From IMG/VR virus record IMGVR_UViG_3300025769_000069: a DNA stretch of 64,000 bases; one strand, written 5' to 3'. Positions 17,864-63,691 of this stretch are shown here, in pieces; the stretch's first letter is position 1, and each line of letters starts with the position of its first letter. Below the pieces are notes generated by a model. The model was not told where the DNA came from and did not search any database. It saw only the letters and a list, made by a program, of their open reading frames with translations. The DNA comes from a virus. A program made the position numbers and the translations under genes.

Positions 17864-19891
17864 ATGGCAACAACTATAAAATCAACAGCTCTAGATTTTA
17901 ATAATATTAAGAGCAACTTAAAAACTTTTTTAGCAAATAAAGAAGAGTTTAAAGATTATAATTTTGAAGCCTCAGGACTTTCAAATATTCTTGATGTACT
18001 AGCATATAATACTCATATTAATGCTCTTATTGCTAACTTTGCTTTAAATGAATCTTATCTGCCAACTGCGCAGTTGAGAAGCTCTGTTGTTTCTTTGGCT
18101 GAAGGTATTGGATATGTTCCGGATACTACAACTGCTTCTCAAGCAACTGTAAGATTATATGTTACAACAACAGAGACAAATGTAGATACTAAAATATCTC
18201 TTCCAGCTTATACCACATTTTCTACTACAGTAGATGATGTAGCATACACTTTTTCTACTATTGAATTATATGAAGCAAATGATGATGGAACTGGTTTTTA
18301 TGAATTTAAAACAGCAGATGGATCTAATAGAATTCCCATCTATGAAGGAACTAGAAAAACTAAAACTTTTTTAGTTGGTCAATATGAAGATAATCCTGTT
18401 TATGTCATACCAGATACTAGGATGGATGCTGATACTGTTACTGTAAAAATATATGATTCATTTACTTCTTCAAACTACGTAATATATCAAAACATAATTA
18501 ATGCAACAAGTATTACATCAACCTCAACAATATACATTTTAAAAGAATCACCAAATGGGTACTACGAATTATCATTTGGTGACGGTGAAACATTTGGAGT
18601 AGCTCCAGGAGCTGGAACAAGAATTGAAATAGAATATCTTTCTACAAATGGAGATGCAGCAAATGGAGCTTCGGTATTTACAAGATCTGGTTCTTTAACC
18701 TTTGGTTCATCCGGAACATTTAATGCAGAGATTAGTAATACTACAATCGTAAATAGTGTCGGTGGATCTTCAAAAGAAACCATTGAATCAATTAGAAAGA
18801 ATGCTCCATTCCAATATGCATCTCAGAATAGAATGGTAACAGCCGAAGATTATTCTTCTTTGATTCTACGTAAATTTTCAACTTTTATTAAAGACATTGT
18901 TTCCTTTGGTGGTGAAATTGCTGCCACACCCGAATATGGTGCAGTATTTACATCTATTGTGTTTGAGGATAATGTAAGTCTTGATACACAAATCATTAAG
19001 AAAAGAGAAATTTTAGATCTAGCAAAACAGCTAGCGATTACATCATTTAATTTAAGATTTGAAGATCCAGTAAAAACTTATGTTGAAACAGACTTGTTCT
19101 TCCAGTTTAACCCTAAACTTACAGATGCCACTCAAAATAATGTTGTATCTGCTGTACAAAACCAAGTTTCAAGCTACTTCAATTTAAATACTGGTAAATT
19201 TAAACAATCCTTTAGACGTTCTAATCTTCTTTCTTTGGTTGATGACATTGATCCAGCTATCTTATCTTCTAGAGCAGATGTGAGAATGCAGCAAAGGTTT
19301 GTTCCTAGTGCTCCAAGCATTGCTACTGTAGTGTTGAACCTTACTCTTAATAATGATGGCAATCCCACTATAAAAGCACGTGCTTTTCTAGTTATTGTTG
19401 ATATGGTTTCATCAGGAAAATATAAAGATGCTGCTAACTATTTGATAAAAAATTCAACAATTCAAAGCAAAAACTATGCTGGAATTTTATCTGATTTAAC
19501 AGCTGCTTCTGCTAATATGTCTAATGTTTTATCATTCCCAGTAAGTATTGCATTAGCAGATAATAACGAATATATTATTACAAGTAATCAGTTTGTATAT
19601 AATGGTAAAAACTGTATTCTAAGAAATAAATTGTCTAGTACGGATATTCAAGTAATTGCTGTGCTTGGAGAAACCGTTGAAGTAGATAATATTGGAAACT
19701 TTGATCCTTCAACAGGGAAAGTTACTATTAACTTTTTTAATCCTACTTCTATTGTTGGTGGTGGATCAGAAATTAAAGTAGCTGCTGTTCCTGCTAACCA
19801 ATCAGCAATATCTCCAGTAAGAAATGAAATATTAGAATATGATTCAACAAGATCTCTAGTTAAAGTTATAACAACAACGGCAACAAATTAA
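17864..19891 (+). CDS. 6: Baseplate wedge gp6
   Basis: LDFNNIKSNLK, DYNFEASGLS.ILDVLAYNTH, FGDG, QNRMVTAEDY. Confidence 0.93.
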   Translation: MATTIKSTALDFNNIKSNLKTFLANKEEFKDYNFEASGLSNILDVLAYNTHINALIANFALNESYLPTAQLRSSVVSLAEGIGYVPDTTTASQATVRLYVTTTETNVDTKISLPAYTTFSTTVDDVAYTFSTIELYEANDDGTGFYEFKTADGSNRIPIYEGTRKTKTFLVGQYEDNPVYVIPDTRMDADTVTVKIYDSFTSSNYVIYQNIINATSITSTSTIYILKESPNGYYELSFGDGETFGVAPGAGTRIEIEYLSTNGDAANGASVFTRSGSLTFGSSGTFNAEISNTTIVNSVGGSSKETIESIRKNAPFQYASQNRMVTAEDYSSLILRKFSTFIKDIVSFGGEIAATPEYGAVFTSIVFEDNVSLDTQIIKKREILDLAKQLAITSFNLRFEDPVKTYVETDLFFQFNPKLTDATQNNVVSAVQNQVSSYFNLNTGKFKQSFRRSNLLSLVDDIDPAILSSRADVRMQQRFVPSAPSIATVVLNLTLNNDGNPTIKARAFLVIVDMVSSGKYKDAANYLIKNSTIQSKNYAGILSDLTAASANMSNVLSFPVSIALADNNEYIITSNQFVYNGKNCILRNKLSSTDIQVIAVLGETVEVDNIGNFDPSTGKVTINFFNPTSIVGGGSEIKVAAVPANQSAISPVRNEILEYDSTRSLVKVITTTATN

Positions 19892-20967
19892 TGTCACATA
19901 ATTATAAAGATAGAACACTAATAGACAATAATAGATTGCCATTGAATTTTCAAAGGGCAGAAATTGATAATGTTTTGCCAGAATATTTTGGCATTGATTT
20001 TCCAAAACTAAAACAACTTTTTGAAGCATATTATGAGTTTATGGATTCTGCTGATGGGCCATCAACTAAGATTAGAAATTTATATGAATCTAAAGATGCT
20101 ACACAAGCTCCAGATATAAATCTTCCCTTTTTAGAAGATGAGTTACTCTTAGGGCAATCTTATTTTGGTGGATTTTTAAATAAAAGAGAAGCTATTAAAT
20201 TTTCTAATCTATTGTATAGATCAAAAGGAACAAAGTATTCTACCGAACAGTTCTTTAGAGGATTTTATGGTAAAGACCCTACAATAGTTTATCCAAAAGA
20301 AAATATTTTTAAAATTGGTCCAGAAATAGATTATTCTTTAAATAGTTCTAATATTGCTGGAGAACAAATAAAAACTCCTGCTTCAGAAATAGGAGCAACG
20401 TCTGAACGATATCTGACTGATGATAAGCTTTATCAAGTAATGTCAATACTTATTCGTGTTGGTGTTTCTATCACAGACTGGAGAGATGTATATAAGTTGT
20501 TTGTCCATCCAGGTGGAGTGTATTTAGGTGCAGAACTTTTACTTGAATTAGTTAATGAAAATGCTTTGGAAGATCAAGTTGGTGCTGGTGATCCAATTGT
20601 AGAAGCAGTTCAAAGAACTCTTGTTGCTGATCTAACTTCTAGCGCATTCTCAAGTACTACACTCCTAGTAGATGGCGACACAACATACGGTATTCACAGA
20701 CAAAATACAGATCAGTTCTTCAGACAAATTGGAGACATTTCAATTACTGATATGCAAGGTTATACTCTTGAAGAAATGTTGGATGCTAATTCTTCAACTA
20801 TGGATGATTCAGATTCTATTACTTCAGTATTTAGAACTTCTGCGACCTTTGATGAAGAGAATTCACTTGGTGACAGTGATCTTGTTCTATCTACATTTGA
20901 TGAAGGTAAAACATGGACAGTATTTGATTCTGCAAATACCGCAGATTCTGATAATTGGATACCATAA
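19891..20967 (+). CDS. Baseplate wedge protein, short gp7-like
   Basis: EAYYEFM, LYRSKGT...FFR.FYG, KLFVHPGG; follows gp6. Confidence 0.7.
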   Translation: MSHNYKDRTLIDNNRLPLNFQRAEIDNVLPEYFGIDFPKLKQLFEAYYEFMDSADGPSTKIRNLYESKDATQAPDINLPFLEDELLLGQSYFGGFLNKREAIKFSNLLYRSKGTKYSTEQFFRGFYGKDPTIVYPKENIFKIGPEIDYSLNSSNIAGEQIKTPASEIGATSERYLTDDKLYQVMSILIRVGVSITDWRDVYKLFVHPGGVYLGAELLLELVNENALEDQVGAGDPIVEAVQRTLVADLTSSAFSSTTLLVDGDTTYGIHRQNTDQFFRQIGDISITDMQGYTLEEMLDANSSTMDDSDSITSVFRTSATFDEENSLGDSDLVLSTFDEGKTWTVFDSANTADSDNWIP

Positions 20968-20972
20968 ACGGT

Positions 20973-20980
20973 TATAAATA
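20973..20980 (+). promoter_or_regulatory. T4-type late promoter
   Basis: Intergenic TATAAATA. Confidence 0.75.
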
Positions 20981-21008
20981 ATTTCAACTAACGAGATGAG
21001 AAAAACAA

Positions 21009-21992
21009 ATGGCTAGACGCACAATCAATACAGGATCTCTGGCAAATGATGGAACCGGCGATACGCTTCGTACTGCTGGAATAAAGATTAATTCTAATTT
21101 TGAAGAGCTGTACGCTAGATTAGGCGGTGATTCATCTGCATCAGGAACTACACTTCTTACAGACAGCGGTTTAGATTTTGTTGGTGTTTCTTATAGAACT
21201 AAACTTGGCTTTGTCGAAGGCGCTTCTCAAATCGAAATTACTTTTCCTGATTCAACAGGAAATATCTTACTTGATACTGCCACACAGACTTTGACTAATA
21301 AAACTATTAGCGCAGATAATAATACATTATCAGGAATTGCTGCTAGTAGCTTTGTCGTATCAAACGGTTCAGGTAATATTGACGGATCTGCTTCTGCTAA
21401 AGCTATTCCAACAGGCGTTGTTGTTGGTACTACTGATACTCAGAGCTTAACAAATAAAACACTTGGAAGTGGAACAGTTATTTCTGCTGGAGCCACTATT
21501 ACTTCTCCAAAAATTATAACTGGAATAAATGATACTAATAATAATGAAATAATTAAATTCACTGCCACTGGTTCAGCTACTAATGAGATTACAGTACAAA
21601 ATTCAAATGGTGGTGCTCCTTCAATAACTTCTACGGGTGGATCTACAAATATCAATTTAGCTCTGCAGTCTAAAGGCACAGGTTCGGTTACAGTTGATAA
21701 GTTTGCAATCCCAGTAGATTCGGCTATTAGTACTACATCCACCGCTTCTTCTACTGGATCACATTATACTGTAACAAATCTTATTACTGTTACTGTAGCT
21801 GATGGCAATGTGGCTGGAGAAATAAAAATATTTACAAATATTGGCACAAGTACAGTGACTATCGATCCAACTTCATTTGGTAATGCTAATCCAACATATA
21901 CCATCAAGCTTACCGAAGCGCAAGCGGTTATGATGGTATGGATAAATAGCAAATGGTATGTCATTGGTGGCGAATATACAATATCTGCATAG
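21009..21992 (+). CDS. gp9/gp10-like baseplate fibre connector
   Basis: INTGSLANDGTGDTLRTAGIKINSNFEELY; QTLTNKT repeats. Confidence 0.75.
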   Translation: MARRTINTGSLANDGTGDTLRTAGIKINSNFEELYARLGGDSSASGTTLLTDSGLDFVGVSYRTKLGFVEGASQIEITFPDSTGNILLDTATQTLTNKTISADNNTLSGIAASSFVVSNGSGNIDGSASAKAIPTGVVVGTTDTQSLTNKTLGSGTVISAGATITSPKIITGINDTNNNEIIKFTATGSATNEITVQNSNGGAPSITSTGGSTNINLALQSKGTGSVTVDKFAIPVDSAISTTSTASSTGSHYTVTNLITVTVADGNVAGEIKIFTNIGTSTVTIDPTSFGNANPTYTIKLTEAQAVMMVWINSKWYVIGGEYTISA

Positions 21993-22002
21993 GAAATAAA
22001 AA

Positions 22003-23466
22003 ATGAGTTCTATTTTAACAGATACACTTAAAAGAGACTTAGTTCAAAAGCTCTTTAATGAAAATGAAGGAACTAGAGTAGGTGATTCTGACAACAATTA
22101 CTATATTGCAATTGGTAGATCAGAAGTATGGAGCGATCCTACGAACGCTAGTGTTAATGATACAACCATTCCTGGTTTTAGTGTTAATAAGCGTGATGAA
22201 AGAGAATTCAGATATAGAATGCAGTCTGTAAAAGCAGTTGAAGCTTTCAGCTGGGTAGTACCAAAAAGAGATTGGACAGCAGGAGATACATATTATGAAT
22301 TCTCTGATTGGGAAACAACAAACCATCCAGCAGCACAATCGCCATATGTAATTACTGAAGATAATAACGTATATGTTTGTATTAGATCAAATAAAAACGC
22401 TGCTGGTGAAGAACAACCATCAGACCAAAAGCCAGATCATACTAATAACACTTTAACGCTTGAAACCGATGGTTACATTTGGAAATATCTATATACAATT
22501 TCAACACCAGATGCTAACAGCTTTATGACTGCTGCTTGGATGCCATGTAAGTATGTCGATTCAGCAGCTGCTGGTGATCCATACTATGGTCAGTACCTAG
22601 CAAAAACCGGAGCTGCAGCTGGTTCTATTGTGGCATATGATGTCATTAACGGCGGGACCGGATATTCAAACACTTCTGGTGCAATTACTTTAAGCGTTGT
22701 TGGAAATGGATCTGGCGCAACCTGTAGAGCTATCGTTCAAAGTAATGGCGTTATTGGTCATGTCATGATTGGTGATAGTGCTGGAGTTGGAGTTGATATA
22801 ACTAAACCAACTTTCAATGCTGCTCTTGGATCTGGTTACGATTATGCAAACGTAAAAATTACAATTAATTCTGGTGGTGGATCTGGAGCTATTATTAAAC
22901 CAGTCTTTGCTCCAGTTAATGGCCTTGGATATAATCCAATTGAGGATTTAAAAGCAAATGCGATTATGTTCAATATTAAGCCTGAAGCAGATGAACAAGT
23001 CAATGGTAGCCCAACTTTTGTAGTAGATCAAGATTATAGACAAGTAGGACTTCTTAGAAATCCTCTCAATTTTGATAGTGATAATGATGTTACCAAATTC
23101 ACCGGACTTTCTGGATTGGCTCTAAAACAAATGAAGTTAGATGGCCAATATACTGGACTTACTTTCCGAACACCCGACACTATTTCTAAGACTGGTGGAA
23201 CTGCTAAAGCTCTTTTAGATTGGTCAGATGCTGGATCTCCAACTAGAATTTGGTACCACCAAGATGATATTACTACAGGCTTTGAAGCCTTTGCTAATGG
23301 TGATACTATTTCGATTGGGGCTACGTCAGGCATCACGGCTGATTCTGCCGCAATAAGACCTGATGTTAACCCACACTCTGGTGATTTATTGTTCCTATCA
23401 AATATTGAACCAATCACTCGTGATGCAGTCCAAACCGAAGACATTAAAGTCGTTATTAGACTCTAA
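22003..23466 (+). CDS. 8: Baseplate wedge gp8
   Basis: YIAIGR..W, VYVCI, DGYIWKYLYTI, DYRQVGLLRNP, SGDLL, R...QTEDIKVVI. Confidence 0.88.
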   Translation: MSSILTDTLKRDLVQKLFNENEGTRVGDSDNNYYIAIGRSEVWSDPTNASVNDTTIPGFSVNKRDEREFRYRMQSVKAVEAFSWVVPKRDWTAGDTYYEFSDWETTNHPAAQSPYVITEDNNVYVCIRSNKNAAGEEQPSDQKPDHTNNTLTLETDGYIWKYLYTISTPDANSFMTAAWMPCKYVDSAAAGDPYYGQYLAKTGAAAGSIVAYDVINGGTGYSNTSGAITLSVVGNGSGATCRAIVQSNGVIGHVMIGDSAGVGVDITKPTFNAALGSGYDYANVKITINSGGGSGAIIKPVFAPVNGLGYNPIEDLKANAIMFNIKPEADEQVNGSPTFVVDQDYRQVGLLRNPLNFDSDNDVTKFTGLSGLALKQMKLDGQYTGLTFRTPDTISKTGGTAKALLDWSDAGSPTRIWYHQDDITTGFEAFANGDTISIGATSGITADSAAIRPDVNPHSGDLLFLSNIEPITRDAVQTEDIKVVIRL

Positions 23467-23475
23467 GGATATACA

Positions 23476-29277: not shown

Positions 29278-29501
29278 TAAGTAATTATTTAATAAAAGTT
29301 GAAGGCCATCCTGATCTAGCACGAGATCTTAGAACCAATGCGATTGTGAATATAAATAAAGAAAAAGCACAGCAAAGGCGCAAAGCTAGAGATGCAAAAT
29401 TAAAAGAACGTGAAGAGTTAGATCAAATAAAGTCTGATGTTAATGACATTAAAGCAATGCTGCAAAAACTATTAGAGAGCAAAAATAATGGCGAATTCTA
29501 G
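29274..29501 (+). CDS. Small coiled-coil protein
   Basis: KVEGHPDLARD..TNAIVN, recalled from aquatic T4-like phages; ATGA coupling. Confidence 0.75.
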   Translation: MISNYLIKVEGHPDLARDLRTNAIVNINKEKAQQRRKARDAKLKEREELDQIKSDVNDIKAMLQKLLESKNNGEF

Positions 29502-33186: not shown

Positions 33187-34968
33187 ATGCTATTATTACA
33201 TAATCCAAACCTTGGCCATATTGTAAGTTACGATATCAGAAATTTAAGGCCTTCTAGATTAGATAGTGATAATGGCCCTCTGATGGTTGTTGATATGAAT
33301 TACCCTGAATTTAAATCTCAACTTTGGAATAAGCAAGGGCCGTGGAGAGATAGTGCTGACGGGGGACACGCCGGACAAAGGTTGCCGAAAGATTTTTATC
33401 CAAATGACACTGTTCAATATGATTTAGACAGGAGTGCTGGGGATACCTATTTCAGAGGCGGTATTCATAATATTAAATTCTGGCCAGCTGGATACAATGA
33501 AGCTTCTGGTAAAAGTTCTTTCGTTACTGTACATTACGGACCGCCCTATTACTTTGTTAGAAGATATGTTGGATATGGTGCATCACCAACCACTGGTTTC
33601 CAATTACAGCAAGAAGCAAGTCAAATTACTTCATGGCAAGTAAATAATCCTAGGGGAGATCTTTCAGAATTTCATAGATATTATTCTGGCCATAACTTTA
33701 TTGGAGATTCTCAATCATGGGATTATTCTGAAGCAAACTTATTTAGAAATGATTTATATTATGGTGCTTTCTTTAAATCATATCCATATTCTGCAGTAAA
33801 TAATTTAGTTGATGTTGAATTTCCACACAATCAACTGATATGGACTCTAGAGTCTAGAGATGACGTGGCAGGTGACACCCATTGCGGGACCTTAAGAAGA
33901 TATAATACTTCATCCTCTTATTGGCACAATTGGTCTTCTACTGCTTCATTCACCAGCCCAGCAACAACTATTGCTATAGATTCTGATTTTTTAAATGTAG
34001 CCGCAGGTGATGACTGGTATATTGGCCCATCATCCGGTAATTTTGTCGCGTCAGCGGTGAAAATAAGAATTCAAAGACCAGAAAGTGTTGCGATTCCGTC
34101 TACTCAACAAAGTAGAAAAGTTCTAATGCATGTACGTGGAATAATTCCAAGACATGATAGAGGATATAATTATAAAAGTTGGTATGATTGGGATCATCAT
34201 GATAGTATAGGAAGCAACTACGTTGGGTACAGAAGCGATTGGATTATTTCAGCAACTTTAACTGATGCAGCTGATGCTAATATTACGGCTGATAGTAGTG
34301 CTTATCACTTTAATATTGCTCAGCACATCGGATATCAAGGCTCCAATTATTCACCAACGAAACAGAGATATTATACCGACATTCAAGCCTTTGACATTAG
34401 TAATGATGGGAAAATATTAACTGTCGCGGTTGACGATTTTGCTGGCGGCGACGCTATACTAAACTTTACTTTAGATACACCATGGGATTTGCGCACGGTG
34501 CAACCATGGGATTGGTATGATAGCGCTGCTGCGGCTTCTGGCCGCGGTGGGACTGATACACTGTCCGGTTTTGGCATCAGCAAAAGCGTTGGGACCGCGA
34601 TTAATGTTCCAAGGCGGGAGTTTTACACGAACGCAGATAGTGCTATGACATATAGATTATATAACATAGCAGACGTAAAAGGTATGACTGGAGTTGTTGG
34701 TAGTGGTACTTCTTATCTTGGTGACTCTGGTGATTTTACTCACTGGACTATAAACAAAGCCGCCACCTACGAAAGAGGAATAGGTAACGGCATTAATGCT
34801 ATTCAATGGAATGATCGTGGAACCTTATTATACGTAGTGGGCCAAGATGGGGCTGTAGTACAATATGAAACTGGTATATTAAGAGATAGCGCTTTTGCTA
34901 AAGATTTATACTACACCGATGACAGCACTGGACCCGGTGGAAAAATCACTTGGTATGGTAGAAAATAA
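33187..34968 (+). CDS. Putative receptor-binding / beta-propeller-like virion protein
   Basis: Trp/Tyr-rich; DISNDGKIL..LDTPWDL and WNDRGTLLYVVG blade-like motifs. Confidence 0.5.
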   Translation: MLLLHNPNLGHIVSYDIRNLRPSRLDSDNGPLMVVDMNYPEFKSQLWNKQGPWRDSADGGHAGQRLPKDFYPNDTVQYDLDRSAGDTYFRGGIHNIKFWPAGYNEASGKSSFVTVHYGPPYYFVRRYVGYGASPTTGFQLQQEASQITSWQVNNPRGDLSEFHRYYSGHNFIGDSQSWDYSEANLFRNDLYYGAFFKSYPYSAVNNLVDVEFPHNQLIWTLESRDDVAGDTHCGTLRRYNTSSSYWHNWSSTASFTSPATTIAIDSDFLNVAAGDDWYIGPSSGNFVASAVKIRIQRPESVAIPSTQQSRKVLMHVRGIIPRHDRGYNYKSWYDWDHHDSIGSNYVGYRSDWIISATLTDAADANITADSSAYHFNIAQHIGYQGSNYSPTKQRYYTDIQAFDISNDGKILTVAVDDFAGGDAILNFTLDTPWDLRTVQPWDWYDSAAAASGRGGTDTLSGFGISKSVGTAINVPRREFYTNADSAMTYRLYNIADVKGMTGVVGSGTSYLGDSGDFTHWTINKAATYERGIGNGINAIQWNDRGTLLYVVGQDGAVVQYETGILRDSAFAKDLYYTDDSTGPGGKITWYGRK

Positions 34969-35026: not shown

Positions 35027-35041
35027 ATAAATTGATTTGAT

Positions 35042-35049
35042 TATAAATA
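35042..35049 (+). promoter_or_regulatory. T4-type late promoter
   Basis: TATAAATA directly after the terminator. Confidence 0.75.
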
Positions 35050-35105
35050 AAATCAAATGGAGCAGGGGCGTGTTGGCGCGTCCGACAAAGAAACACGAGG
35101 ATTTC

Positions 35106-35459
35106 ATGGCCCAATATGAAGAGTTTACTATTGACCAAGGCAGCGATGTATCTGTAGAAATAAGCTGCGTAAATATAGACGGATCAGTTAAAGATTTATC
35201 TAACCATACAATCCAAGCAAAAATGAAGAAAAGTTATAACAGTGACTCGGCAGACACTGTTGATTTTACTGCGGGCGTAGGTGTACCAGCAGCTGATGGA
35301 GTTATACTCTTATCTCTTACAAATAGTCAAACTGATGCTATTAAACCGGGAAGATGGGTATATGATGTTGAAATTTCTTTTGTAGATAGTGATGGCGCCG
35401 TAATTAAAGAAAGAATTCTAGAAGGTAGAGTTCAAGTAACACCATCAGTCACTAGGTAA
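35106..35459 (+). CDS. Small fibre adaptor / Ig-like structural protein
   Basis: IDQGSD, AKMKKSY, LSLTNSQT, GRWVYDVEI, RILEGRVQVTPSVT; GAGG RBS supports ATG 35106. Confidence 0.7.
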   Translation: MAQYEEFTIDQGSDVSVEISCVNIDGSVKDLSNHTIQAKMKKSYNSDSADTVDFTAGVGVPAADGVILLSLTNSQTDAIKPGRWVYDVEISFVDSDGAVIKERILEGRVQVTPSVTR

Positions 35460-50944: not shown

Positions 50945-50946
50945 AC

Positions 50947-51678: not shown

Positions 51679-51685
51679 TTTAGTG

Positions 51686-51714
51686 GTTTACATTCCAGAA
51701 AAACAGTATATAAT
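51686..51714 (+). promoter_or_regulatory. Sigma70-type promoter inside the late region
   Basis: GTTTACA (51686-51692), 16 bp, TATAAT (51709-51714), intergenic. Confidence 0.6.
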
Positions 51715-51749
51715 AAAAGTATAGACTTTTCAAACCAGGATAGTATATT

Positions 51750-53012: not shown

Positions 53013-53023
53013 AAGGTGAATGA

Positions 53024-54046
53024 ATGAAAAGAATTTTAATTACTGGTGGTGCTGGTTTTATTGCCCATCATCTAATTGGTCAAGTACTTAAAAGAACTGA
53101 TTGGGAAATTGTTACTCTAGATCGTCTAGATTATAGTGGTAACTTAAACCGCTTGCACGATTTATTGCAAGATTATACTCCAGCAGAACGTAAAAGAGTT
53201 CGCACAATTTACCACGATTTTAAAGCTGAAATTAACCCAATGCTTAAATCTGACATTGGTAAAATTGACATCGTTGCTCATTTAGCCGCTGGTTCTCATG
53301 TTGATAGATCCATTGAGAGACCAATGGAATTTGTTATGGATAATGTTGTTGGCACATGTAATGTATTGGAATTTGCCAAACAGCAAGATAATTTAGAACG
53401 CTTTTTATATTTCTCAACTGATGAAGTATTTGGGCCCGCCCCTGATGGAATTAAATATGATGAGTATGATCGTTATAATTGTACTAATCCATATTCCGCA
53501 TCAAAAGCTGGTGGTGAAGAACTAGCAGTCGCTTATCAAAATACTTATAGCATGCCTATATACATTACACACACAATGAATGTATTTGGACAAAGACAAC
53601 ATCCAGAAAAGTTTATTCCTCTTTGTATTAAAAAAGCGAGAGATGGAGAAACAGTAACAATTCACAGTGATGCATCTAAAACTATACCAGGATCGCGCCA
53701 TTATATTCACGCAGAAGATGTAGCTGATGCTACTTTATTCTTACTAGAAAATAAGAATACTTTAGATATGACAAACAACTCTGGCATTAAATGCCCTAAG
53801 TTTAACATCTGTGGAGCTACAGAAATAAATAACCTAGAATTAGCACAAATGATTGCTGATGCTCAAGGAAAGGAATTATATTATGAATTTATGGATTTCC
53901 ATTCTAGCCGTCCTGGCCATGATCTTCGTTATGCTCTTAGTGGGGATCGTATGGCGCGGATGGGTTGGAGTCCAAAAAGAGTTGAACGAAGAATTGAAGA
54001 AGTTGTGCGATGGACTTTAGAAAATGATAGATGGTTAATGATTTAA
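53024..54046 (+). CDS. rmlB: dTDP-glucose 4,6-dehydratase (RmlB-like)
   Basis: ITGGAGFI, AAGSHVDRSI, STDEVFG, YSASK, QHPEKFIP, RPGHDLRY. Confidence 0.9.
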   Translation: MKRILITGGAGFIAHHLIGQVLKRTDWEIVTLDRLDYSGNLNRLHDLLQDYTPAERKRVRTIYHDFKAEINPMLKSDIGKIDIVAHLAAGSHVDRSIERPMEFVMDNVVGTCNVLEFAKQQDNLERFLYFSTDEVFGPAPDGIKYDEYDRYNCTNPYSASKAGGEELAVAYQNTYSMPIYITHTMNVFGQRQHPEKFIPLCIKKARDGETVTIHSDASKTIPGSRHYIHAEDVADATLFLLENKNTLDMTNNSGIKCPKFNICGATEINNLELAQMIADAQGKELYYEFMDFHSSRPGHDLRYALSGDRMARMGWSPKRVERRIEEVVRWTLENDRWLMI

Positions 54047-54058
54047 AGGAATAAGATA

Positions 54059-55468
54059 ATGTTGAATTTAGGAAAACTACCAGCATCAGTTGAACAACAA
54101 CGGATGACACACAAAGAAAATATTGAGAAACAATCGGCAACAAGCGCGCCACTAGAAGCGCGATCAGAACGTCAAGTTCAAGGTGCGCTGACTCCAAAAG
54201 AAATTTTTGAACGACATGGAATGTGTGTAATTACAGAAGTTGTTAATGAAGAAGAATGTAAAAAACTTTCAAAGCACATGTTCGATTTATTTGAACAAGG
54301 AAAATTAAGTAAAGATCCTCAGTGCCCTCTTTCTGATTCAATATATGGTGATCCAATTTGGGATAAGATGCTAGAAGATTTTGCAAAACCAATCGGAGAA
54401 TATATTGGTTATGAACTTCTTCCAACATACACATATGCTAGAATTTATAGAAAAGGTGAAGAATTAAAAATTCATAAAGATCGTCCTTCATGCGAAATCA
54501 GCGCTACGATGACGATTGATTTCGCTGATTATCCAATTTGGCCAATTCATATGGGCAGTGAACGTAATGTCATCATAGATAGAGGTGATATGATTGTTTA
54601 TAAAGGATGCGAATTGGATCACTGGAGAGATCCATTTAAAGGCGAATGGCAAGTTCAAGTATTTTTCCATTATGTTGATGCAAATGGACCCCATAAAGAT
54701 CTGCATAAAGATGGAAGAAATAATTTAGGTGAAAAGAAAGAAAATCCGGCAGAAAGACCTGAACCTGATATTTTCAAAGATTTAAGAGGATATGCTAATC
54801 AGCAGCTTATGACATTTGGAAATCTTCATCATAACGGTTTTACTGTTTTAAATTCTCATGATTATGATGTTCCTGGTTATATGGGAATTGAGCCAGATGA
54901 AACAAATCATGATTTTACACTTACACCTGAAGATTGTAAACTTTTAATAGATGAAATTGTTAATAAACAATATGCTGTAGATGCCGGCGTTGGATCCAAT
55001 ATGACGGGTTCTTCAGTTACAAAAGAAATTAGAAGTTGTAAAATATATGCTATTCCAAAAGACGAAAGATTTATTCATATCTATAACAAAATTATTTCTT
55101 CGGTTTCTATAGCAAATAAGTTTTATTATGACTTCGAATTAACTGGATTCTTAGGAGAACTTCAATTACTAGAATATAAACATGATGAAAACTCTAGCGT
55201 TCCAGATCATTATAATTGGCATGCTGATTGTGGCCCTGGTGAATCTGCAACTAGAAAACTATCCGTAGTTGTACAATTAACAGATCCTTCAGAGTATGAA
55301 GGGTGCGAACTTGTTATAAATAACAATGGAATGGAACTGGAAGCTTCCAAAAAGCAAGGGACAATTAATATGTTTCCAAGCTACTCTATACACACAGTGA
55401 AACCTATAACAAAAGGAACAAGACATTGTATAGTTGTTTGGATTCATGGAAACAAACGTTTTAGATAA
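54059..55468 (+). CDS. Tandem double 2OG-Fe(II) dioxygenase
   Basis: Domain 1 PTYTYARIY..HKDRPSCE..HWR; domain 2 WHAD..RKLS..FPSY..HTVKPITKGTR. Confidence 0.88.
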   Translation: MLNLGKLPASVEQQRMTHKENIEKQSATSAPLEARSERQVQGALTPKEIFERHGMCVITEVVNEEECKKLSKHMFDLFEQGKLSKDPQCPLSDSIYGDPIWDKMLEDFAKPIGEYIGYELLPTYTYARIYRKGEELKIHKDRPSCEISATMTIDFADYPIWPIHMGSERNVIIDRGDMIVYKGCELDHWRDPFKGEWQVQVFFHYVDANGPHKDLHKDGRNNLGEKKENPAERPEPDIFKDLRGYANQQLMTFGNLHHNGFTVLNSHDYDVPGYMGIEPDETNHDFTLTPEDCKLLIDEIVNKQYAVDAGVGSNMTGSSVTKEIRSCKIYAIPKDERFIHIYNKIISSVSIANKFYYDFELTGFLGELQLLEYKHDENSSVPDHYNWHADCGPGESATRKLSVVVQLTDPSEYEGCELVINNNGMELEASKKQGTINMFPSYSIHTVKPITKGTRHCIVVWIHGNKRFR

Positions 55469-56439: not shown

Positions 56440-56443
56440 ACAA

Positions 56444-56836
56444 ATGGGTCGTTTAGTGGAATATAGAAATCATAGGAATCCATTAGATAAATCTCCTATT
56501 GAGCCGGGATTTATTTCACTTGGCGGTTTAGATCATAATGATTCAGATATGACTTATGTTGGATGGATTAGTGAAATTTTTCTCACTGAAACCTATGTTC
56601 CAGATGGTATTGTATTTTTAGATAGCGCATCATACATTGCTAGATCACTGCAATTAAAGGAAAGTATGCCTAGTGCTTTCATATTCCTTGATAGCGCCGA
56701 TCAGCCTTGGGGATATGACGCAGATGGTTATCCACTAAAGATGAGTGATGATTCATGCGCAGCTGTTGCAATTGAAACTTATAATCATTATGTTTCAACT
56801 TATACTCAAATGGAAGCAGAAGGAACTCTTAGATAA
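56444..56836 (+). CDS. Acidic hypothetical protein
   Basis: GAGGAG RBS; TAATG coupling downstream; four DS motifs. Confidence 0.7.
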   Translation: MGRLVEYRNHRNPLDKSPIEPGFISLGGLDHNDSDMTYVGWISEIFLTETYVPDGIVFLDSASYIARSLQLKESMPSAFIFLDSADQPWGYDADGYPLKMSDDSCAAVAIETYNHYVSTYTQMEAEGTLR

Positions 56837-58308
56837 TGCCTATTATAATGACAGGAAATTCTGTTGTATTTTATGGTGGAGTCCCTTCAGCTCCACCTGA
56901 TACAGCTCCTGTGGCGCCAACTGTATATGGCCCTACTGTTACTCCAACAGTGCCTGCAGCAAGTGTTGGAATTAAAGGCCGTGCCAACGATCAAGCAGAA
57001 ATTAAGATGACTTCCTTTGGCCCATATGGATGGGAGATAGGTCCTGGTTATTTAAATGCAGATTTGAAATTGACAGTTGGAGATGAGCCCTGGGAAATTG
57101 GCAGTGAAAGATTGTATACAATGGCAGGGTTACAATCTCCGCAGGTTCCCTCAGCACTTGTAACCGGCACATACGCCGGTGATGCTGTTGATTTTAATCC
57201 TTTTGCTGTTCCATCTGTTCCTTCAGTTCTTATAGGATCTTTATCAGGGTCTAATATGCCAAGTGGTGTGGACACTTGGTCAGACGGTAGATTTGCATAT
57301 TTGCAAACGATTGGTGGTGGGGTTCCATTTTATCCCTATTATAATCCAGCCTATATCACCCTCCGTGGTGCGAGAATGCCTTATGCTTTAACTACACCAG
57401 CACCATCGTCGACAGCAAATATCGTTTCACAAGATATTAACCCCGCACCGATATTCCTCGCTGGTGGGTATCTAGCACAAAGCTATGGCGCAACAAGAGT
57501 TGCTTCTGCTCCAAGCAATGCATATTCCACCACTCTGAATTTTAAAATTCCAAGGTCTCCTGGAACACCGTGGGCAACCGCATGGAACGGATCTATGGAA
57601 GCCAGCCGGGTAAAATTTCCATACGCTGGTCAAGTATCAGTAGCGATACCTGTCGCTCCATTAGCACCATATGGCGCCCCAGCATATAGCGCGTATAGAA
57701 CTACTAGTCGAGCCGACCATACTAGATATACTAATAATGGTCATATACATACAGGCCCACGCCAAACGGAATACGGCAACACCGGAGGCACTTTAAAATT
57801 TAATAGGTACTCAACTGCGTCAGAAACTGATTGGGAAACTACAGCAACAATTAGTTTAGGTAGCCAGCCACATAATATTTGGACAACTCCAACTTATGCT
57901 AACACTCCATACCAACCATATACAGGAGGCAACTACGGCCATGTCGACGGTGGATTTACTGTAGAATCACCTACTCAAGGTCTTGTTGCGGGCCAAAGTA
58001 GGGTTGCTCCATTCAACCCCTCTACTGGGAGCCTGTTTTGGAAACATATTGGGTGGCCTGGTGCTAGTGGTACAAGTATTACTGGACTTAGATTTTCTAT
58101 TGGTTGGAATCCTCTTACGATGTTAAGCCCCATAAATAAAACAGAATCAAGTGAGGATGCTATGTGGTTCTCTTTTAGTTATAGTAATAATGGTTATGGG
58201 CTTTATAGAATTCCCTATGCAGCATCACCAGACATTTATGTCAATCATACACCTCAAGGGATCGGCTATCGCAGACCTAAAAAAAGCGGCGGGTCGGTTG
58301 TAGTATAA
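56836..58308 (+). CDS. Pro-rich putative beta-propeller virion protein
   Basis: Recurring (F/M/I)P(F/Y)A blade-like motifs; N-terminus MPII. Confidence 0.6.
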   Translation: MPIIMTGNSVVFYGGVPSAPPDTAPVAPTVYGPTVTPTVPAASVGIKGRANDQAEIKMTSFGPYGWEIGPGYLNADLKLTVGDEPWEIGSERLYTMAGLQSPQVPSALVTGTYAGDAVDFNPFAVPSVPSVLIGSLSGSNMPSGVDTWSDGRFAYLQTIGGGVPFYPYYNPAYITLRGARMPYALTTPAPSSTANIVSQDINPAPIFLAGGYLAQSYGATRVASAPSNAYSTTLNFKIPRSPGTPWATAWNGSMEASRVKFPYAGQVSVAIPVAPLAPYGAPAYSAYRTTSRADHTRYTNNGHIHTGPRQTEYGNTGGTLKFNRYSTASETDWETTATISLGSQPHNIWTTPTYANTPYQPYTGGNYGHVDGGFTVESPTQGLVAGQSRVAPFNPSTGSLFWKHIGWPGASGTSITGLRFSIGWNPLTMLSPINKTESSEDAMWFSFSYSNNGYGLYRIPYAASPDIYVNHTPQGIGYRRPKKSGGSVVV

Positions 58309-58322
58309 TATGAGGAAAAATA

Positions 58323-59615
58323 ATGCCAATTAAAATTTCATCAACTGCGAATACAGCAACAATAGAAAATACAGAAGGCACTTCTATTGTCTTTGAATCC
58401 AATAAAATATCAACCGGTGGGGGCTTATTCGTTGATGTTGACCCATCAGCTTTGTCACCTGCGAACATAATTTCGTTTCCCGGACCTGTCAGCGTTAACG
58501 TATCTACTTCTCCCGCTCCCTATCTTGACCCTACAATCCCAGCCCCAAGCAACTATACTATTCCTTCTCCTGCTCCAGTCGTCGCGGCTGGTTACCCACA
58601 ATCGATAATTGAGGGCTATCCAGGATCGTTCTATATAAACGTAAGTGGGGATGCTGCTGGGGTAGAAGTTCCATATAGTTTTACTGGACCAGCTGCGAAC
58701 ACAAATGATCTCTACTTTCCACAACATCCTGCTCCCACGCAAGGAGACTTTATTAGTGGGTCTATAACTTCACCCGGTATCCTTTATTGGTCGCACGCCG
58801 CGGATCAAACAACAGAAACTTATCCAGAGTATTATGAAATAAATCTTCCAAGTTTCTTGTACCCGGCCGGAACCATTCACGTAGAACTTGCTGAAGGTTC
58901 TTACACGCCGCAACCGATTGGATCAACTCCACCATATAAAGTTGGTGGACAATTTTTATCAGGCACATACGATTATCGCGCTCCTGGATATTATGGCATA
59001 CTTGGTTCAGGCCCTCTGGCTAAAGGAGTAAGATTTGCTTTTCCTCAACCAGAATTAATTGCTGGAGGATTCTCTCCAGGTAGTCCAGTTACTTTAAACT
59101 CTGCAACAGTATACATATACAAGAATACCGAGACGGCTGCTACTACATACACTAATTATCAGCTAGCAATAGGTCATCATCCTCAAAATAATTGGCCAAG
59201 AACTAATAGTCTTATCTTTGGATCCACGCCAACTATTCCTCAAGGAGCGACTCAAACAGTAGTATATGGACCAACTCCCCTAGTAGTACCAACAACCGCA
59301 TTGGGTGCATTTACTATTCCTTTTAGTACTCCATTTACTTATCCAGGAACTGGGAGTATTCAAATTACTGCTATTAGCCAAAACTCACCATATAAAGCGC
59401 ATAATATCTTAGTCAAAGAATTGAAGGTACCAACAGGATTAGCGCCCAGTCCCACTGCAATTGCGGCTGAGTGGGGCCCTCCTGCTCCTTCAACGTATCC
59501 AAACAACCAGAGTTATGTTTTTGTTTATCCTGGCAATTCAAATTCATTAACTCCGACAAGTTTCTTTCCAAATATTCAATATGCTAGACCAGTCATTCAT
59601 TTTAATACTACATAG
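58323..59615 (+). CDS. Pro-rich putative virion protein
   Basis: N-terminus MPIK; ADQTTE..E motif; FSTPFTY.G.GSI motif. Confidence 0.6.
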   Translation: MPIKISSTANTATIENTEGTSIVFESNKISTGGGLFVDVDPSALSPANIISFPGPVSVNVSTSPAPYLDPTIPAPSNYTIPSPAPVVAAGYPQSIIEGYPGSFYINVSGDAAGVEVPYSFTGPAANTNDLYFPQHPAPTQGDFISGSITSPGILYWSHAADQTTETYPEYYEINLPSFLYPAGTIHVELAEGSYTPQPIGSTPPYKVGGQFLSGTYDYRAPGYYGILGSGPLAKGVRFAFPQPELIAGGFSPGSPVTLNSATVYIYKNTETAATTYTNYQLAIGHHPQNNWPRTNSLIFGSTPTIPQGATQTVVYGPTPLVVPTTALGAFTIPFSTPFTYPGTGSIQITAISQNSPYKAHNILVKELKVPTGLAPSPTAIAAEWGPPAPSTYPNNQSYVFVYPGNSNSLTPTSFFPNIQYARPVIHFNTT

Positions 59616-59623
59616 AGAATAAA

Positions 59624-60946
59624 ATGCCAATCACGTTTAGACAATATAACGGTCCAACTACTACAGGTTATAACTTTGAAATAGACACGCCCCATGCTGG
59701 TCTAAGGACGATAACTGCGACTCAACCTAATCCAGGACTTCCGCAAGCAACTCCACTTGGTTATCCAAGTATAAGTTTTACAGCTGTGTCATCTCCAGCT
59801 GCACCTCAAGGTGCTCCATTTGCAAACTTTAACGTAAGAGATACTAATGTTAAAGTAATTGCCGGCGCATTTTATTCTAGAGGCAACCGAGACATGATTG
59901 GCGAAATGGGATATTTTACTTGGGGCGTGTCACAATCGCCGACTATTCCGACATACGGCGGAAATATTATGCATACCGATTTTACTTCTCAGACAACTAT
60001 AACTGCTGGAAGATGGAGTCCTAGTATGCCTGGAATATATAAGCCAGGAAGAGCGGCATCACCTACTTCAATATATACTCTTGCTGGCGGCGCGCCTAAC
60101 TTGAATACGGCCACTAGTGGTGTATGGAAATTTCCAAAATCAACTACAACAGTAATTACATTATCACCTTCTACAGCAGCATCACCCGTTACATTTGGCA
60201 CACCAGTTGGAAATACATCTTCAGCTAGAGGAGGCGAATATTGGAGTGAATCTGTGAATGGTAAATATTATCAGGCTGGATGGCCAAACCCAACAATTTC
60301 TATGTATTCAGCTCCATACGCTAGTGATACTAATAGTGCAAGTGTAGGAACTATATCAACTCCGCAATGGACAACTTCTTTTGCTGGGGCGTCACAAGTA
60401 GGAAGTGCTAGAGATTATTCTTTCCATAGATGGGGAATGCAACCAGGGAATCCTTATTATCCCACAACTTCCCCTGGTACTGGTAGAGAAGTTTTTTCTA
60501 GATTACCATTTGCAGGTTATCCATATGGATCAGCTTACACCGTTCCAGATTTAGATATGATGCAAGGATATGGAGATACGCATCATCCATATGGAGGCAA
60601 CCATTTAGTAGCTAGCACTGTGGAAAATGGATATGTGTGGGGTGGATGGTATGGACCTAGCTCTGCTCCGCAGCCTTTTAATCGACAAGTGAGAGTCCAC
60701 CCATGGGCTAATTTTGATCTTAACTATATATTATTAGGTGATTCAAATGTGAAAGGAATAAGTGGCGGTAATGGAAATAATGAAGAAGAAGCTTTATATC
60801 ATGCATACGGCGGTAACTCTGGCAGCCCACACCCAGTATCCCAAGGATACGCATTTCCATTCGCTTCCACATTCCCAATAGCAACAACGGTTCCAACGAT
60901 CGACCATTGGCAGCAAAGCGCAGGTTCTGGCCATGCGCACAATTAG
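59624..60946 (+). CDS. Pro-rich putative beta-propeller virion protein
   Basis: PYASDTN..SVGTI, LPFAG, FPFAST repeats; N-terminus MPIT. Confidence 0.6.
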   Translation: MPITFRQYNGPTTTGYNFEIDTPHAGLRTITATQPNPGLPQATPLGYPSISFTAVSSPAAPQGAPFANFNVRDTNVKVIAGAFYSRGNRDMIGEMGYFTWGVSQSPTIPTYGGNIMHTDFTSQTTITAGRWSPSMPGIYKPGRAASPTSIYTLAGGAPNLNTATSGVWKFPKSTTTVITLSPSTAASPVTFGTPVGNTSSARGGEYWSESVNGKYYQAGWPNPTISMYSAPYASDTNSASVGTISTPQWTTSFAGASQVGSARDYSFHRWGMQPGNPYYPTTSPGTGREVFSRLPFAGYPYGSAYTVPDLDMMQGYGDTHHPYGGNHLVASTVENGYVWGGWYGPSSAPQPFNRQVRVHPWANFDLNYILLGDSNVKGISGGNGNNEEEALYHAYGGNSGSPHPVSQGYAFPFASTFPIATTVPTIDHWQQSAGSGHAHN

Positions 60947-60954
60947 TATAAATA
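60947..60954 (+). promoter_or_regulatory. T4-type late promoter
   Basis: TATAAATA before gp13. Confidence 0.75.
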
Positions 60955-60983
60955 GAATAAAAACATATTAAGGTTTTTCATCG

Positions 60984-61736: not shown

Positions 61737-61739
61737 GTT

Positions 61740-62639
61740 ATGGCCACAAATAGATATTTTAGTCAAGGTAGCAGAGCTGAACAGCAGCTATATGAAGAGA
61801 TCATAATTGAATCTCTTCAAATCTATGGGCAAGACGTATATTATCTCCCAAGAACAATAGTTAATAAAGATAATATACTAAATGAAGACGCCAATTCAAG
61901 TTTTAATTCTTCATATAAAATTGAAATGTACATTGAAAACTTAGATGGTTTTGATGGCGAAGGAGACTTATTTACAAAATTTGGTGTTGAGATCAGAGAT
62001 CAAGCTACATTTATTATGGCTAAAAAAAGATGGCAACAAACGGTAGCTAAATATGATAATGATATTGAAGGTGTTAGGCCATTAGAAGGTGATCTACTTT
62101 ATATTCCATTCTCTAAAAAATTATTTGAGATAGTCCACGTTGAACATGAGCAACCATTTTATCAGTTAAAAGATCTTCCAACATTTAAACTTCGTTGTGA
62201 GTTGTTTGAATATAGTGGTGAAAGCATTGATACTGGTATTGAGAAAATAAATGATATTGAAAGTAACTATGGATACGAATATCAACTTACATTAGATTCA
62301 GCAAGCTTTGGATTCACTATTGGTGAAACAATAAATCAAACCTTTAGTGATGGCGTTAAAATGTCTGGTGAAGTTTCTCGTTGGTCTGATTCTGATCAAA
62401 TTCTAGGTGTGGTCAGCGCTGGAGCAAATGATGGGCTATATCATACATTTGTATCAGGCCTTCCAGTAAGAGGAACTGTAGATCACGATACAACAGGTCT
62501 TACAAAATATTCTGTGGCTAATGTTAATCTTGTTTCTGAAAATAATCAATTATCAAATACTGAACAAAATACATATTTTGATACATTGACCGATTTCTTA
62601 GACTTTAGTGAATCTAACCCATTTGGAGACCCTAGCTAA
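61740..62639 (+). CDS. 14: Neck protein gp14
   Basis: E..QIYGQDVYYLPR, KFG, RP.EGDL.Y.P, PFYQL, L.CELFEYS, DFSESNPFG. Confidence 0.95.
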   Translation: MATNRYFSQGSRAEQQLYEEIIIESLQIYGQDVYYLPRTIVNKDNILNEDANSSFNSSYKIEMYIENLDGFDGEGDLFTKFGVEIRDQATFIMAKKRWQQTVAKYDNDIEGVRPLEGDLLYIPFSKKLFEIVHVEHEQPFYQLKDLPTFKLRCELFEYSGESIDTGIEKINDIESNYGYEYQLTLDSASFGFTIGETINQTFSDGVKMSGEVSRWSDSDQILGVVSAGANDGLYHTFVSGLPVRGTVDHDTTGLTKYSVANVNLVSENNQLSNTEQNTYFDTLTDFLDFSESNPFGDPS

Positions 62640-62899
62640 TGAGTGATTTATTTGACTTTGGTTTTACAGCAGTCGATGAAGACGAGCTTCAAGCTGTTCA
62701 AAAAACAGTTGCTCTTGCAACTGATGCTGAGCAATTAGCATTAACCACACAAGAAAGATTAGATAAATTATATAATGCTATTGTTCCTCTTTTAAATAAT
62801 TTAAAGAAGAATCCAGAAAAAGAATATATCTTATGGCCAAATAGACTGGCCAAAGTAGAAGAGTTTGAGACACATCTTCAAGAAATTTATAAGGGTTAA
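62639..62899 (+). CDS. Hypothetical protein
   Basis: TAATG coupling; FDFGF...NPEKEYILWPNR. Confidence 0.75.
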   Translation: MSDLFDFGFTAVDEDELQAVQKTVALATDAEQLALTTQERLDKLYNAIVPLLNNLKKNPEKEYILWPNRLAKVEEFETHLQEIYKG

Positions 62900-62902
62900 C
62901 CC

Positions 62903-63691
62903 ATGTTTGGCACATATTTTTATCACGAAAGAATTAGAAAAAGTGTTGCTCTTTTTGGCAGCCTTTTTAATAATTTGTATGTGCTAAGAAAAGATAGTTC
63001 AGGCGCAGTCATAAATCAAATGAAAGTTCCTTTGTCATATGGTCCAAAACAAAAATTCTTAGAAAGAATTAGTCAAGTACCAAGCCTGACAGATAACCAG
63101 AATGTGTCTATTAAACTTCCACGGATGTCTTTTGAAATAATTGGAATTAATTATGATGCAACTAGACAGCTGCAGAAAAATAATAATTTCACTCAAGCAA
63201 GTTCTTCAATAAATTCTAGAAATAGATTTAACGCATTTGTTCCATATACTATTTCATTTCAATTAAGCATTTACGCTAAAAATCAAGATGACGCTCTTCA
63301 AGTTGTAGAACAAATCTTTCCATATTTTTCACCACAATATAGCGTAACAATAAAACCTATTACAGCTTATCCGGATTTAAAAGAAGATGTTCCTATTCTT
63401 TTAACTGGAGTATCTTTTACAGATGATTATGAAGGCTCTCAAGAACAAAGAAGAACAATTATCTATACATTAGACTTTGATATGAAAGCCAATTTTTATG
63501 GACCAATTACATCACAAGCTGTTGTTCGTAAAGTTGACGCTAATATATATCAAATAGACAATGGATTGAATGATTCTGATGTAGCTCTAGAAACTATATC
63601 AATTACACCTAACCCAACATCTGTAATCGGCTTAGCTGATAGCGACTTTGGATTTACTGAAACAATAACTTATTTTGGCGATAGTGCATAA
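62903..63691 (+). CDS. 15: Tail terminator / sheath stabiliser gp15
   Basis: FYHE.IRK....FG.LFN, VPLSYGPKQKFL, LPRMSFE, QI.PYF.P, RRTIIYTL.F. Confidence 0.95.
   Translation: MFGTYFYHERIRKSVALFGSLFNNLYVLRKDSSGAVINQMKVPLSYGPKQKFLERISQVPSLTDNQNVSIKLPRMSFEIIGINYDATRQLQKNNNFTQASSSINSRNRFNAFVPYTISFQLSIYAKNQDDALQVVEQIFPYFSPQYSVTIKPITAYPDLKEDVPILLTGVSFTDDYEGSQEQRRTIIYTLDFDMKANFYGPITSQAVVRKVDANIYQIDNGLNDSDVALETISITPNPTSVIGLADSDFGFTETITYFGDSA

Follow-up and report, generated by a model that had tools for sequence, protein, structure and literature searches.

General O-glycosylation in the Bacteroidota is directed by a three-residue sequon, D-(S/T)-(A/I/L/V/M/T), in which Ser is also accepted at the third place, Glu is not tolerated and a third-place Gly abolishes modification; the system works in the periplasm on non-cytoplasmic proteins, enrichment of the sequon in target proteins has itself been used as its genomic signature, and it is the only sequence-motif-driven O-glycosylation known in bacteria, apart from the one proposed below (PMC12871550). 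A motif with the same Asp-Ser core, D-S-(A/D), is described here in a 64,000-nucleotide stretch of viral DNA (IMG/VR record IMGVR_UViG_3300025769_000069, hereafter the window), which forms the structural region of a T4-like marine phage, uncultured and with a GC content of 32-45%, whose closest cultured relative is phage C48C1 (gp8 identity only 30%). The Asp-Ser dipeptide (DS) of this motif is enriched in peripheral baseplate, fibre and neck proteins, specific in its residues, conserved, restricted to one clade of phages and located in loops. That it is read in trans and leads to a covalent modification is a tentative proposal, which these sequence patterns suggest.

The phage motif and the Bacteroidota sequon are alike in spanning three residues, in starting with Asp-Ser, in not admitting Glu for Asp and in being enriched in a class of target proteins. 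They differ in that the phage motif does without Thr and that its third place is preferentially Ala or Asp and seldom Leu, Val or Thr; in addition, the phage proteins are virion components assembled in the cytoplasm, and the host is probably not a member of the Bacteroidota. A host system of that type acting on the virion proteins would account for the Asp-Ser core, the intolerance of Glu and the Ala allowed at the third place, but it is periplasmic and limited to non-cytoplasmic targets (PMC12871550), DT is depleted in the phage proteins, and Shine-Dalgarno-like sequences precede about half of the genes of the window. The shape of the motif largely refutes this explanation, which has hardly any probability left.

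Cytoplasmic O-glycosylation of Ser is known from SdgA and SdgB, which act on staphylococcal Ser-Asp repeats, and from the BAHT heptosyltransferases, which act on the beta-helix repeats of AIDA-I and TibA. Both are Ser-specific and use acidic D-S-D sequences or short inter-strand loops of fibrous proteins, as a putative phage system would, but the phage motif is scattered over many unrelated proteins and not confined to one repeat region. In mycobacteriophages, capsid and tail tube are reportedly modified at their C-termini without a defined sequon, in contrast to the clade studied here, which has a defined tripeptide and shows no enrichment in capsid or sheath. According to two papers that refer to the original work, mycobacteriophage virion proteins are decorated by phage-encoded glycosyltransferases (GTs) (Freeman et al. 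2023, cited in PMC12801897, PMC11256854). Literature searches turned up no report of a motif of the present kind in phage proteins.

Asp-Ser enrichment and its controls

Expected dipeptide counts were derived from within-protein shuffles, and 13 flagged proteins were compared with the remainder of the window. In the 13 proteins DS occurs 110 times versus 61.0 expected (z 6.7), which places it first among the 400 dipeptides, with SD at expectation (61 versus 60.5) and DT (53 versus 67.7), ES (16 versus 29.8) and NS (42 versus 52.3) below it; the remaining proteins of the window hold 32 DS versus 40.4 expected. The counts from which a first-pass annotation had proposed the motif were reproduced exactly (42 in the giant fibre; 15, 11, 8, 7, 6 and 5 in the proteins starting at 29488, 33187, 27613, 23476, 19891 and 22003; 4 each at 56444 and 62903, the latter ending in GDSA), as were its low counts (none at 14999 or in the RmlB-like protein at 53024, one at 3177 and six at 4104-6293). 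Its description of the carriers as outer virion proteins is too wide: gp14 and gp15 of the neck are enriched together with the fibres and the peripheral baseplate, and the major capsid, sheath and portal proteins of relatives are not.

Among tripeptides seen at least five times in the 13 proteins, DSA has the highest z (43 versus 5.1 expected) and DSD the fourth highest (29 versus 4.9). DSL, DSK, DSE and DSP are absent from these proteins (3.9, 1.8, 2.3 and 1.7 expected), and DSV occurs once versus 3.9 expected; DSI is not depleted in the window itself (9 versus 4.1) because of a DSIG repeat. Outside the 13 proteins, the same window has no DSA versus 3.2 expected.

Base composition, internal repeats or a DNA word such as GANTC, which GAT-TCN and GAC-TCN spell, might produce such counts, and many sites of the two long fibres do lie in repeats: the giant fibre, with 18 DSA, 12 DSD and few DT (12 versus 23.9), has many of its sites within repeats such as LYYTxARFDSDF, and the 1,229-residue fibre contains repeated AINEL(N/R)DS(I/M)G units. 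Enrichment nevertheless persists after removal of every later copy of any self-BLAST match, which takes 1819 of its 2191 residues from the giant fibre: DS then stands at 66 versus 37.5 expected (Poisson 1.6e-5), 11 of the 13 proteins lie above expectation and the 1,229-residue fibre keeps 11 versus 6.2. The signal also holds in the non-repetitive gp8, gp7-like and VrlC C-terminal proteins across about 70 lineages. Both families of Ser codons are used at DS sites (TCN 68, AGY 42; AGY makes up 38% of DS serines and 30% of all Ser), which argues for selection at the protein level and not on a DNA word, and since positive genomes reach a GC content of 36-42%, AT bias is not the cause. Codon use, masking and GC of up to 42% thus rule out DNA-level, repeat-only and AT-bias causes, and an artefact of this kind is extremely improbable.

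The word GANTC has a distribution of its own. In the DS-rich genes of 19891-42041 it occurs 80 times in frame 0 and 6 times in each of the other frames, compared with 43, 14 and 19 by frame in the other plus-strand genes; its total is near expectation in 19891-42041, whereas the rest of the window has about 0.73 of the expected number.

Clade restriction, conservation and loop location

About 90 IMG/VR loci were taken around homologues of the VrlC C-terminal piece (VrlC-C) and of gp8, and statistics across them are not phylogenetically independent. Three large relatives, G001 (144 kb, 87% complete), G002 (142 kb) and G004 (98 kb), have a GC content of 36-42%. The motif is present in about 70 related loci, down to a gp8 identity of about 30%, and the observed/expected ratio (O/E) of DS in peripheral proteins is about 2 in every identity bin. 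DS is counted 521 times versus 232 expected in gp8 across loci (424 versus 190 in 62 gp8 homologues, with O/E of 0.63 for DT and 0.38 for ES), 327 versus 140 in gp7-like and 254 versus 105 in gp9/10-like orthologues of DS-positive lineages, and 114 versus 64 in VrlC-C orthologues. Fibres across loci have a DS O/E of 1.7-2.1, and the VrlC N-terminal orthologues are at most weakly enriched (534 versus 461, O/E 1.16). Overall, the target proteins show DS at 1.8-2.3, ES at 0.4-0.5 and DT at 0.6-0.8. In the neck, gp14 of relatives has 3 versus 1.3, 3 versus 2.3 and 8 versus 2.8 DS, and gp15 has 4 versus 1.4, 4 versus 1.3 and 3 versus 1.4, compared with 1 versus 2.4 and 1 versus 1.0 in motif-free genomes.

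Within the large relatives the excess is concentrated in the fibre/baseplate block, where DSA reaches 45 versus 5.1 in G001 and 53 versus 6.2 in G002, as against 4 versus 8.8 and 1 versus 9.6 in the rest of these genomes; the whole G004 record has 88 versus 13.6, and the giant-fibre orthologue of G001 has 46 DS versus 16.5. The O/E of DS[AD] per locus is bimodal, being 4-11 in most of the loci and about 0-2 in a minority, and in the gp8 tree the 68 positive loci form one large group with a few negatives nested within it. DS is flat in T4 (55 versus 53), and no comparable signal was seen in P-SSM4, P-SSM2, pelagiphage Mosig, most of C48C1, G003 (131 kb) or an E. coli segment. The flat T4-like controls make the enrichment a property of one clade and not a general trait of T4-like baseplates and fibres.

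Two sets of proteins call for separate mention. In C48C1 (L012 15242-19948), gp8, VrlC and the giant fibre are without the motif; its 1568-residue baseplate-fibre connector has 31 DS and 28 SD versus 17.7 expected each, with 7 DSA and 8 DSD, and represents either a low-complexity region rich in Asp and Ser or a remnant of the motif. At L051:17131-18946 and L078:16654-18225, small fibre-like proteins of about 200-390 residues carry 13-29 DS versus 3-6 expected; nearly all of their short hydrophobic segments start with DSA or DSS, and their conserved N-terminus resembles that of the fibre encoded from 29488 in the window.

A profile of 839 non-redundant DS sites confines the motif to very few positions. 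The residue before Asp is more often hydrophobic (1.4x) and less often charged (0.6x); the third residue is Ala (3.1x) or Asp (2.9x) and seldom Lys/Arg (0.2x), Pro (0.3x), hydrophobic (0.4x) or Thr (0.5x); and Gly is favoured at the fourth (1.8x). No deviation from background was seen outside these positions. In orthologue alignments 65% of the DS of the window are kept, compared with 38% for other dipeptides (42% for D-x and 32% for x-S), and the third residue of kept sites drifts among Ala, Asp, Ser and Gly. Replacement of Ser by Thr is almost never seen at conserved sites. Both D28 and S29 of gp8 are at least 90% conserved in the 62 homologues. The VrlC-C alignment has 29 columns with DS, of which four are kept in 14 of 24 sequences, a distribution that implies turnover of sites.

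Mapping of the sites on AlphaFold2 (AF2) models of the gp8-like protein (predicted local distance difference test, pLDDT, 88) and of VrlC-C (pLDDT 80) assigns 11-12 of the 13 DS sites to coil or strand-loop junctions. The distance to a strand end is 2-4 residues for most of them, two fall within or beside a loop of low confidence, and four of the five sites of the gp8-like model are in coil adjoining strands. T4, P-SSM4, Mosig and C48C1 carry unrelated residues at the gp8 DS loops (GPDKN in T4, QNSSN in C48C1), so the fold does not need DS, and the motif was gained in parallel in several loops and proteins. Some small fibre-like proteins of relatives consist largely of units starting with DSA, and some gp9/10-like homologues have 9-residue repeats each starting with DS. 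Ca2+ binding, which the first-pass annotation had offered as an alternative, is not borne out: canonical ligand spacing was not found among the 839 sites, where acidic residues remain at background at places four to ten after Asp, unlike in DxDxDG, EF-hand, RTX or TSP3 loops, and the window has only two DSDG sites. Nor do the sites resemble helix N-caps or capping boxes, no helix following 12 of the 13 modelled sites and no acidic/hydrophobic periodicity following the motif. Some repeats in the fibres of relatives may differ in this respect.

The inner baseplate of motif-positive lineages is poor in DS, with a pooled O/E of 0.50 compared with 0.94 in motif-free lineages. The corresponding values are 0.43 (76 versus 175, n=48) and 1.03 for gp6 (Mann-Whitney p 0.001) and 0.28 and 1.00 for the gp25-like protein. 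DSA outside the fibres totals 5 versus 21.6 for the window, G001 and G002 and 7 versus 5.6 for G004, with a control baseline of about 0.7, so that genome-wide avoidance of DSA is only suggestive.

One lineage appears, from its proteins, to have purged the motif. L054 (IMGVR_UViG_3300021085_000111) is nested in the positive clade, where it clusters with L055, which is the record of G001, with 99% support; protein identity between the two is 54-61%. DS is missing from the gp8 of L054 (2.9 expected), where its sisters have 8-9, and DG occurs there 10 times versus 3.8 expected. DS stands at 4 versus 12.5 in its peripheral proteins and at 13 versus 12.4 in its inner ones (gp6 6 versus 4.2). Loss of all nine gp8 sites is unlikely at the turnover of an average dipeptide (about 0.04 by our own estimate) and very unlikely if they were constrained as elsewhere. 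This reversal is a natural experiment for finding a reader of the motif.

A possible tag read in trans, a possible structural cap and the search for an enzyme

The suggestion that the motif serves recognition or modification is partly supported by these sequence data. A non-chance DS-(small) motif survives every control run, is conserved in the clade and was gained in parallel, whereas the enzymes that had been named as its readers find no support. Our leading, though tentative, interpretation is that D-S-(A/D), less often with Ser, Gly or Asn at the third place, a short linear motif that surface loops of peripheral baseplate, fibre and neck proteins have gained in parallel in this large clade, would serve as a tag for a trans-acting factor, and that the best candidate for this factor is an enzyme that modifies Ser. 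Such an enzyme would modify the hydroxyl group of Ser in the cytoplasm, either ahead of assembly or in its course, O-glycosylation being the most plausible chemistry. We favour a tag read in trans because three or four residues, set in unrelated contexts, carry all the information of the motif; because the motif is strict (ES, NS and DT below expectation, SD neutral); because its gain is parallel and clade-specific, the inner baseplate is DS-poor and L054 has purged it; and because the Bacteroidota sequon sets a precedent with its Asp-Ser core and its intolerance of Glu. The more specific proposal that DS-(A/D) is the acceptor sequon of a Ser-specific cytoplasmic system, probably O-glycosylation fed by flippase-less glycan islands and coating fibres, outer baseplate and neck, is possible but less likely than not.

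Close behind the trans-read tag stands a cis-acting structural element, which is possible but somewhat less probable: a clade-specific Asx/ST-turn loop cap at strand ends and repeat starts, perhaps with seawater Mg2+ or Ca2+, that needs no enzyme. Such caps likewise place Asp and Ser at strand-loop junctions, followed by a small residue and then Gly, and a cap would explain the coil and junction positions in the two models, the Gly at the fourth place, the exclusion of Lys and Arg beside the motif, the retention of DS in place (65% versus 38%, and at least 90% in gp8), the repeat units that begin with DS in fibre-like proteins of relatives, the change of DS to DG in L054 and the lack of a cleanly tracking enzyme. 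On the other hand, homologous folds in T4, P-SSM4, P-SSM2, Mosig, C48C1 and G003 do without the motif, and the generic turn pairs DG, NG, DP and NP are not enriched in the DS-rich proteins. Structural caps normally tolerate exchange of Asp with Asn and of Ser with Thr and are not specific to a lineage; here Thr, Asn and Glu do not substitute, which is atypical for an Asx/ST turn, and a 6-9x excess of two tripeptides is left unexplained. The sites show neither acidic Ca2+-type ligand spacing nor helix periodicity, and a cap predicts neither the DS-poverty of the inner baseplate nor the L054 purge. What probability remains is assigned to explanations beyond those set out here.

Several observations weigh against a tag read in trans. 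Capsid and sheath, which are the most exposed proteins of the virion, and the portal show no DS enrichment in relatives. Some DS sites are at least 90% fixed in place across 35% identity, and DS starts many structural repeat units, both of which fit a role in cis; in L054, several DS positions have become DG, a generic turn former. In the inner proteins of positive lineages SD is low as well (pooled 0.67, gp6 0.52), and since the gp6 value is near the 0.43 of DS, the avoidance of DS is only partly specific to the motif; outside the structural block the shift is small, with a DS O/E of 0.64-0.77 in positive genomes and 0.82-1.05 in controls. At most two or three independent transitions of the motif are visible. 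The positive lineages are essentially one clade, and co-occurrence with any gene may therefore reflect a single shared history. No enzyme family among those screened follows the motif cleanly: GT2, GT9 and Asp/Arg hydroxylase are not common to the positive genomes, GT8 does not track it, and P-SSM2 has a GT25 gene without enrichment of DS[AD].

The first-pass annotation had named as modifier either a GT2-tetratricopeptide repeat (GT2-TPR) fusion or an Asp hydroxylase among the 2-oxoglutarate (2OG) enzymes of the window. These belong to an island of three 2OG oxygenases of the prolyl 4-hydroxylase (P4H) type (2OG-FeII_Oxy_3), together with two GT2 proteins, one RmlB-like epimerase/dehydratase and another 2OG-like protein. 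The GT2-TPR fusion (49217-50944) has a DUF6445 tail and the second GT2 is fused to a methyltransferase; together with the P4H-type genes (47917-53012) they directly follow three collagen-like genes, each of which ends in a Peptidase_S74 chaperone domain and one of which has a PA14 insert. Decoration of DS sites across the virion by one of these enzymes would be in keeping with two GT2 and three 2OG-FeII_Oxy_3 domains next to structural genes. However, G001, which has the strongest DS signal, has neither a collagen-like gene nor a homologue of any island gene except for a distant match of 25% identity to the RmlB-like gene, so that the phage without the island keeps the motif. G002 retains a single collagen-like gene and a weak 2OG homologue. 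No PF00535 match was obtained in G001-G005, compared with matches in 14 of 14 control genomes, and PF05118 (Asp/Arg hydroxylase) occurs in G001 only and not in G002. A role of the named enzymes at DS sites is thus highly improbable.

The P4H-type and GT genes adjoin the collagen-like genes, and both sets are missing from G001; the island is better explained as a maturation set for collagen-like fibres and is probably not the reader of DS. Glycosylated collagen-like filaments are known from BclA of the Bacillus exosporium (PMC6222408, PMC7793302). In BclA and giant-virus collagen modification, as in the island, collagen-like chains stand beside rhamnose-type sugar enzymes, GTs, a methyltransferase and hydroxylases, and these systems act on Gly-X-Y chains, which suit the island better as a target than DS sites do; the Gly-X-Y chains of the window are almost free of Asp. 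If the motif is a tag read in trans, its reader would be an enzyme other than those of the island, which more plausibly serve the adjacent collagen-like fibres.

Genes common to G001 and G002 and absent from motif-free genomes include GT25 and GT8 and also DUF6267, DUF932 and helicase and UvsX variants, so that this subtraction is not specific. G001 carries an approximately 17-kb glycan island (60400-77500 of L099) with two to four GT25 genes, GT8-like genes, a sulfotransferase, a HAD-nucleotidyltransferase fusion, a methyltransferase, a cupin, a radical SAM/SPASM enzyme and a carbamoyltransferase. GT25 (PF01755) was found in five of five searchable motif-positive records and in one of six motif-free genomes, being absent from G003, Mosig, C48C1, P-SSM4 and T4; four further positive fragments (17-26% complete) and the motif-free L054 fragment, all too small to be informative, have none. 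A tblastn search with the GT25 protein gave almost no match in cultured phages. The link between GT25 and the motif, as read from gene content, is confounded by shared ancestry and may serve as a lead only.

As candidates for the reader, the GT2-TPR protein, PF00535, PF05118, PF01501 and PF01075 were rejected, their presence and absence not tracking the motif.

Fibres and outer baseplate decide the host range and what hosts and grazers see of a phage, and ocean metagenomes contain the clade in abundance, its IMG/VR contigs numbering in the hundreds. If the motif is indeed a modification tag, virion surface chemistry would have a new principle in a tripeptide present at least 40 times per fibre. 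This would be the first case of a phage virion whose proteins are modified under the direction of a sequon and the second motif-driven O-glycosylation in prokaryotes, and the many orphan glycan islands of marine phages would gain a defined acceptor for experiments. Even a purely structural motif would, through its bimodal presence and absence, serve as a sequence marker that cleanly divides these phages.

Gene map of the window

Product assignments (Table 1) are based on PHROG, Pfam and PDB searches.

Table 1. Genes of the window that bear on the motif, with DS counts (observed versus expected)
Feature	Position	Strand	DS	Remark
gp5 C-terminal-like inner baseplate, 795 aa	14999	+	0 vs 4.6	
gp25-like inner baseplate	17416	+	1 vs 0.7	
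gp6-like inner baseplate	17864 to 19891	+	2 vs 3.9	
gp7-like baseplate wedge	19891..20967	+	6 vs 2.9	PHROG baseplate wedge matches
gp9/gp10-like baseplate-fibre connector	21009..21992	+	4 vs 1.7	
gp8-like baseplate wedge	22003..23466	+	5 vs 3.0	PDB match T4 gp8
VrlC-like N-terminal piece, 988 aa	23476..26442	+	7 vs 5.2	
VrlC-like C-terminal piece, 554 aa	27613..29277	+	8 vs 3.9	
Tail fibre, 1229 aa	29488..33177	+	15 vs 10.6	PHROG tail fibre matches
593-aa protein	33187..34968	+	11 vs 4.8	No Pfam/PHROG match; DS in unrelated contexts
Small tail-fibre assembly-like protein	35037..35459	+	2 vs 1.3	PHROG L-shaped tail fibre assembly
Giant fibre, 2191 aa	35466..42041	+	42 vs 20.5	Main motif carrier
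Three collagen-like fibre genes	42075-47635	+		Collagen and Peptidase_S74 domains
Enzyme island (2OG / GT2 / RmlB-like)	47917-55468	+		Context of motif genes
130-aa protein	56444..56836	+	4 vs 1.2	No family match
gp14-like neck protein	61740..62639	+	2 vs 2.1	PHROG head closure Hc2
gp15-like tail sheath stabiliser	62903..63691	+	4 vs 1.7	C-terminus GDSA

The neck and tail-terminator genes gp13, gp14 and gp15 lie at the end of the window, after four proteins without a family match. Three consecutive proteins in 56836-60946 (490, 430 and 440 residues) are low in Asp (2-3%) and have about 10% Ser and a higher GC content; they gave no Pfam or PHROG match and have no homologue in G001 or G002. Homologues of the assembly-like gene at 35037 are present in G001, G002 and G004 and in none of the motif-free genomes examined. 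The VrlC-like protein is encoded by three open reading frames (ORFs) in the window and its nearest relatives (23476, 26450 and 27613; 988, 387 and 554 residues) and by a single ORF of 1200-2100 residues in most relatives (L055, L085, Mosig, P-SSM4).

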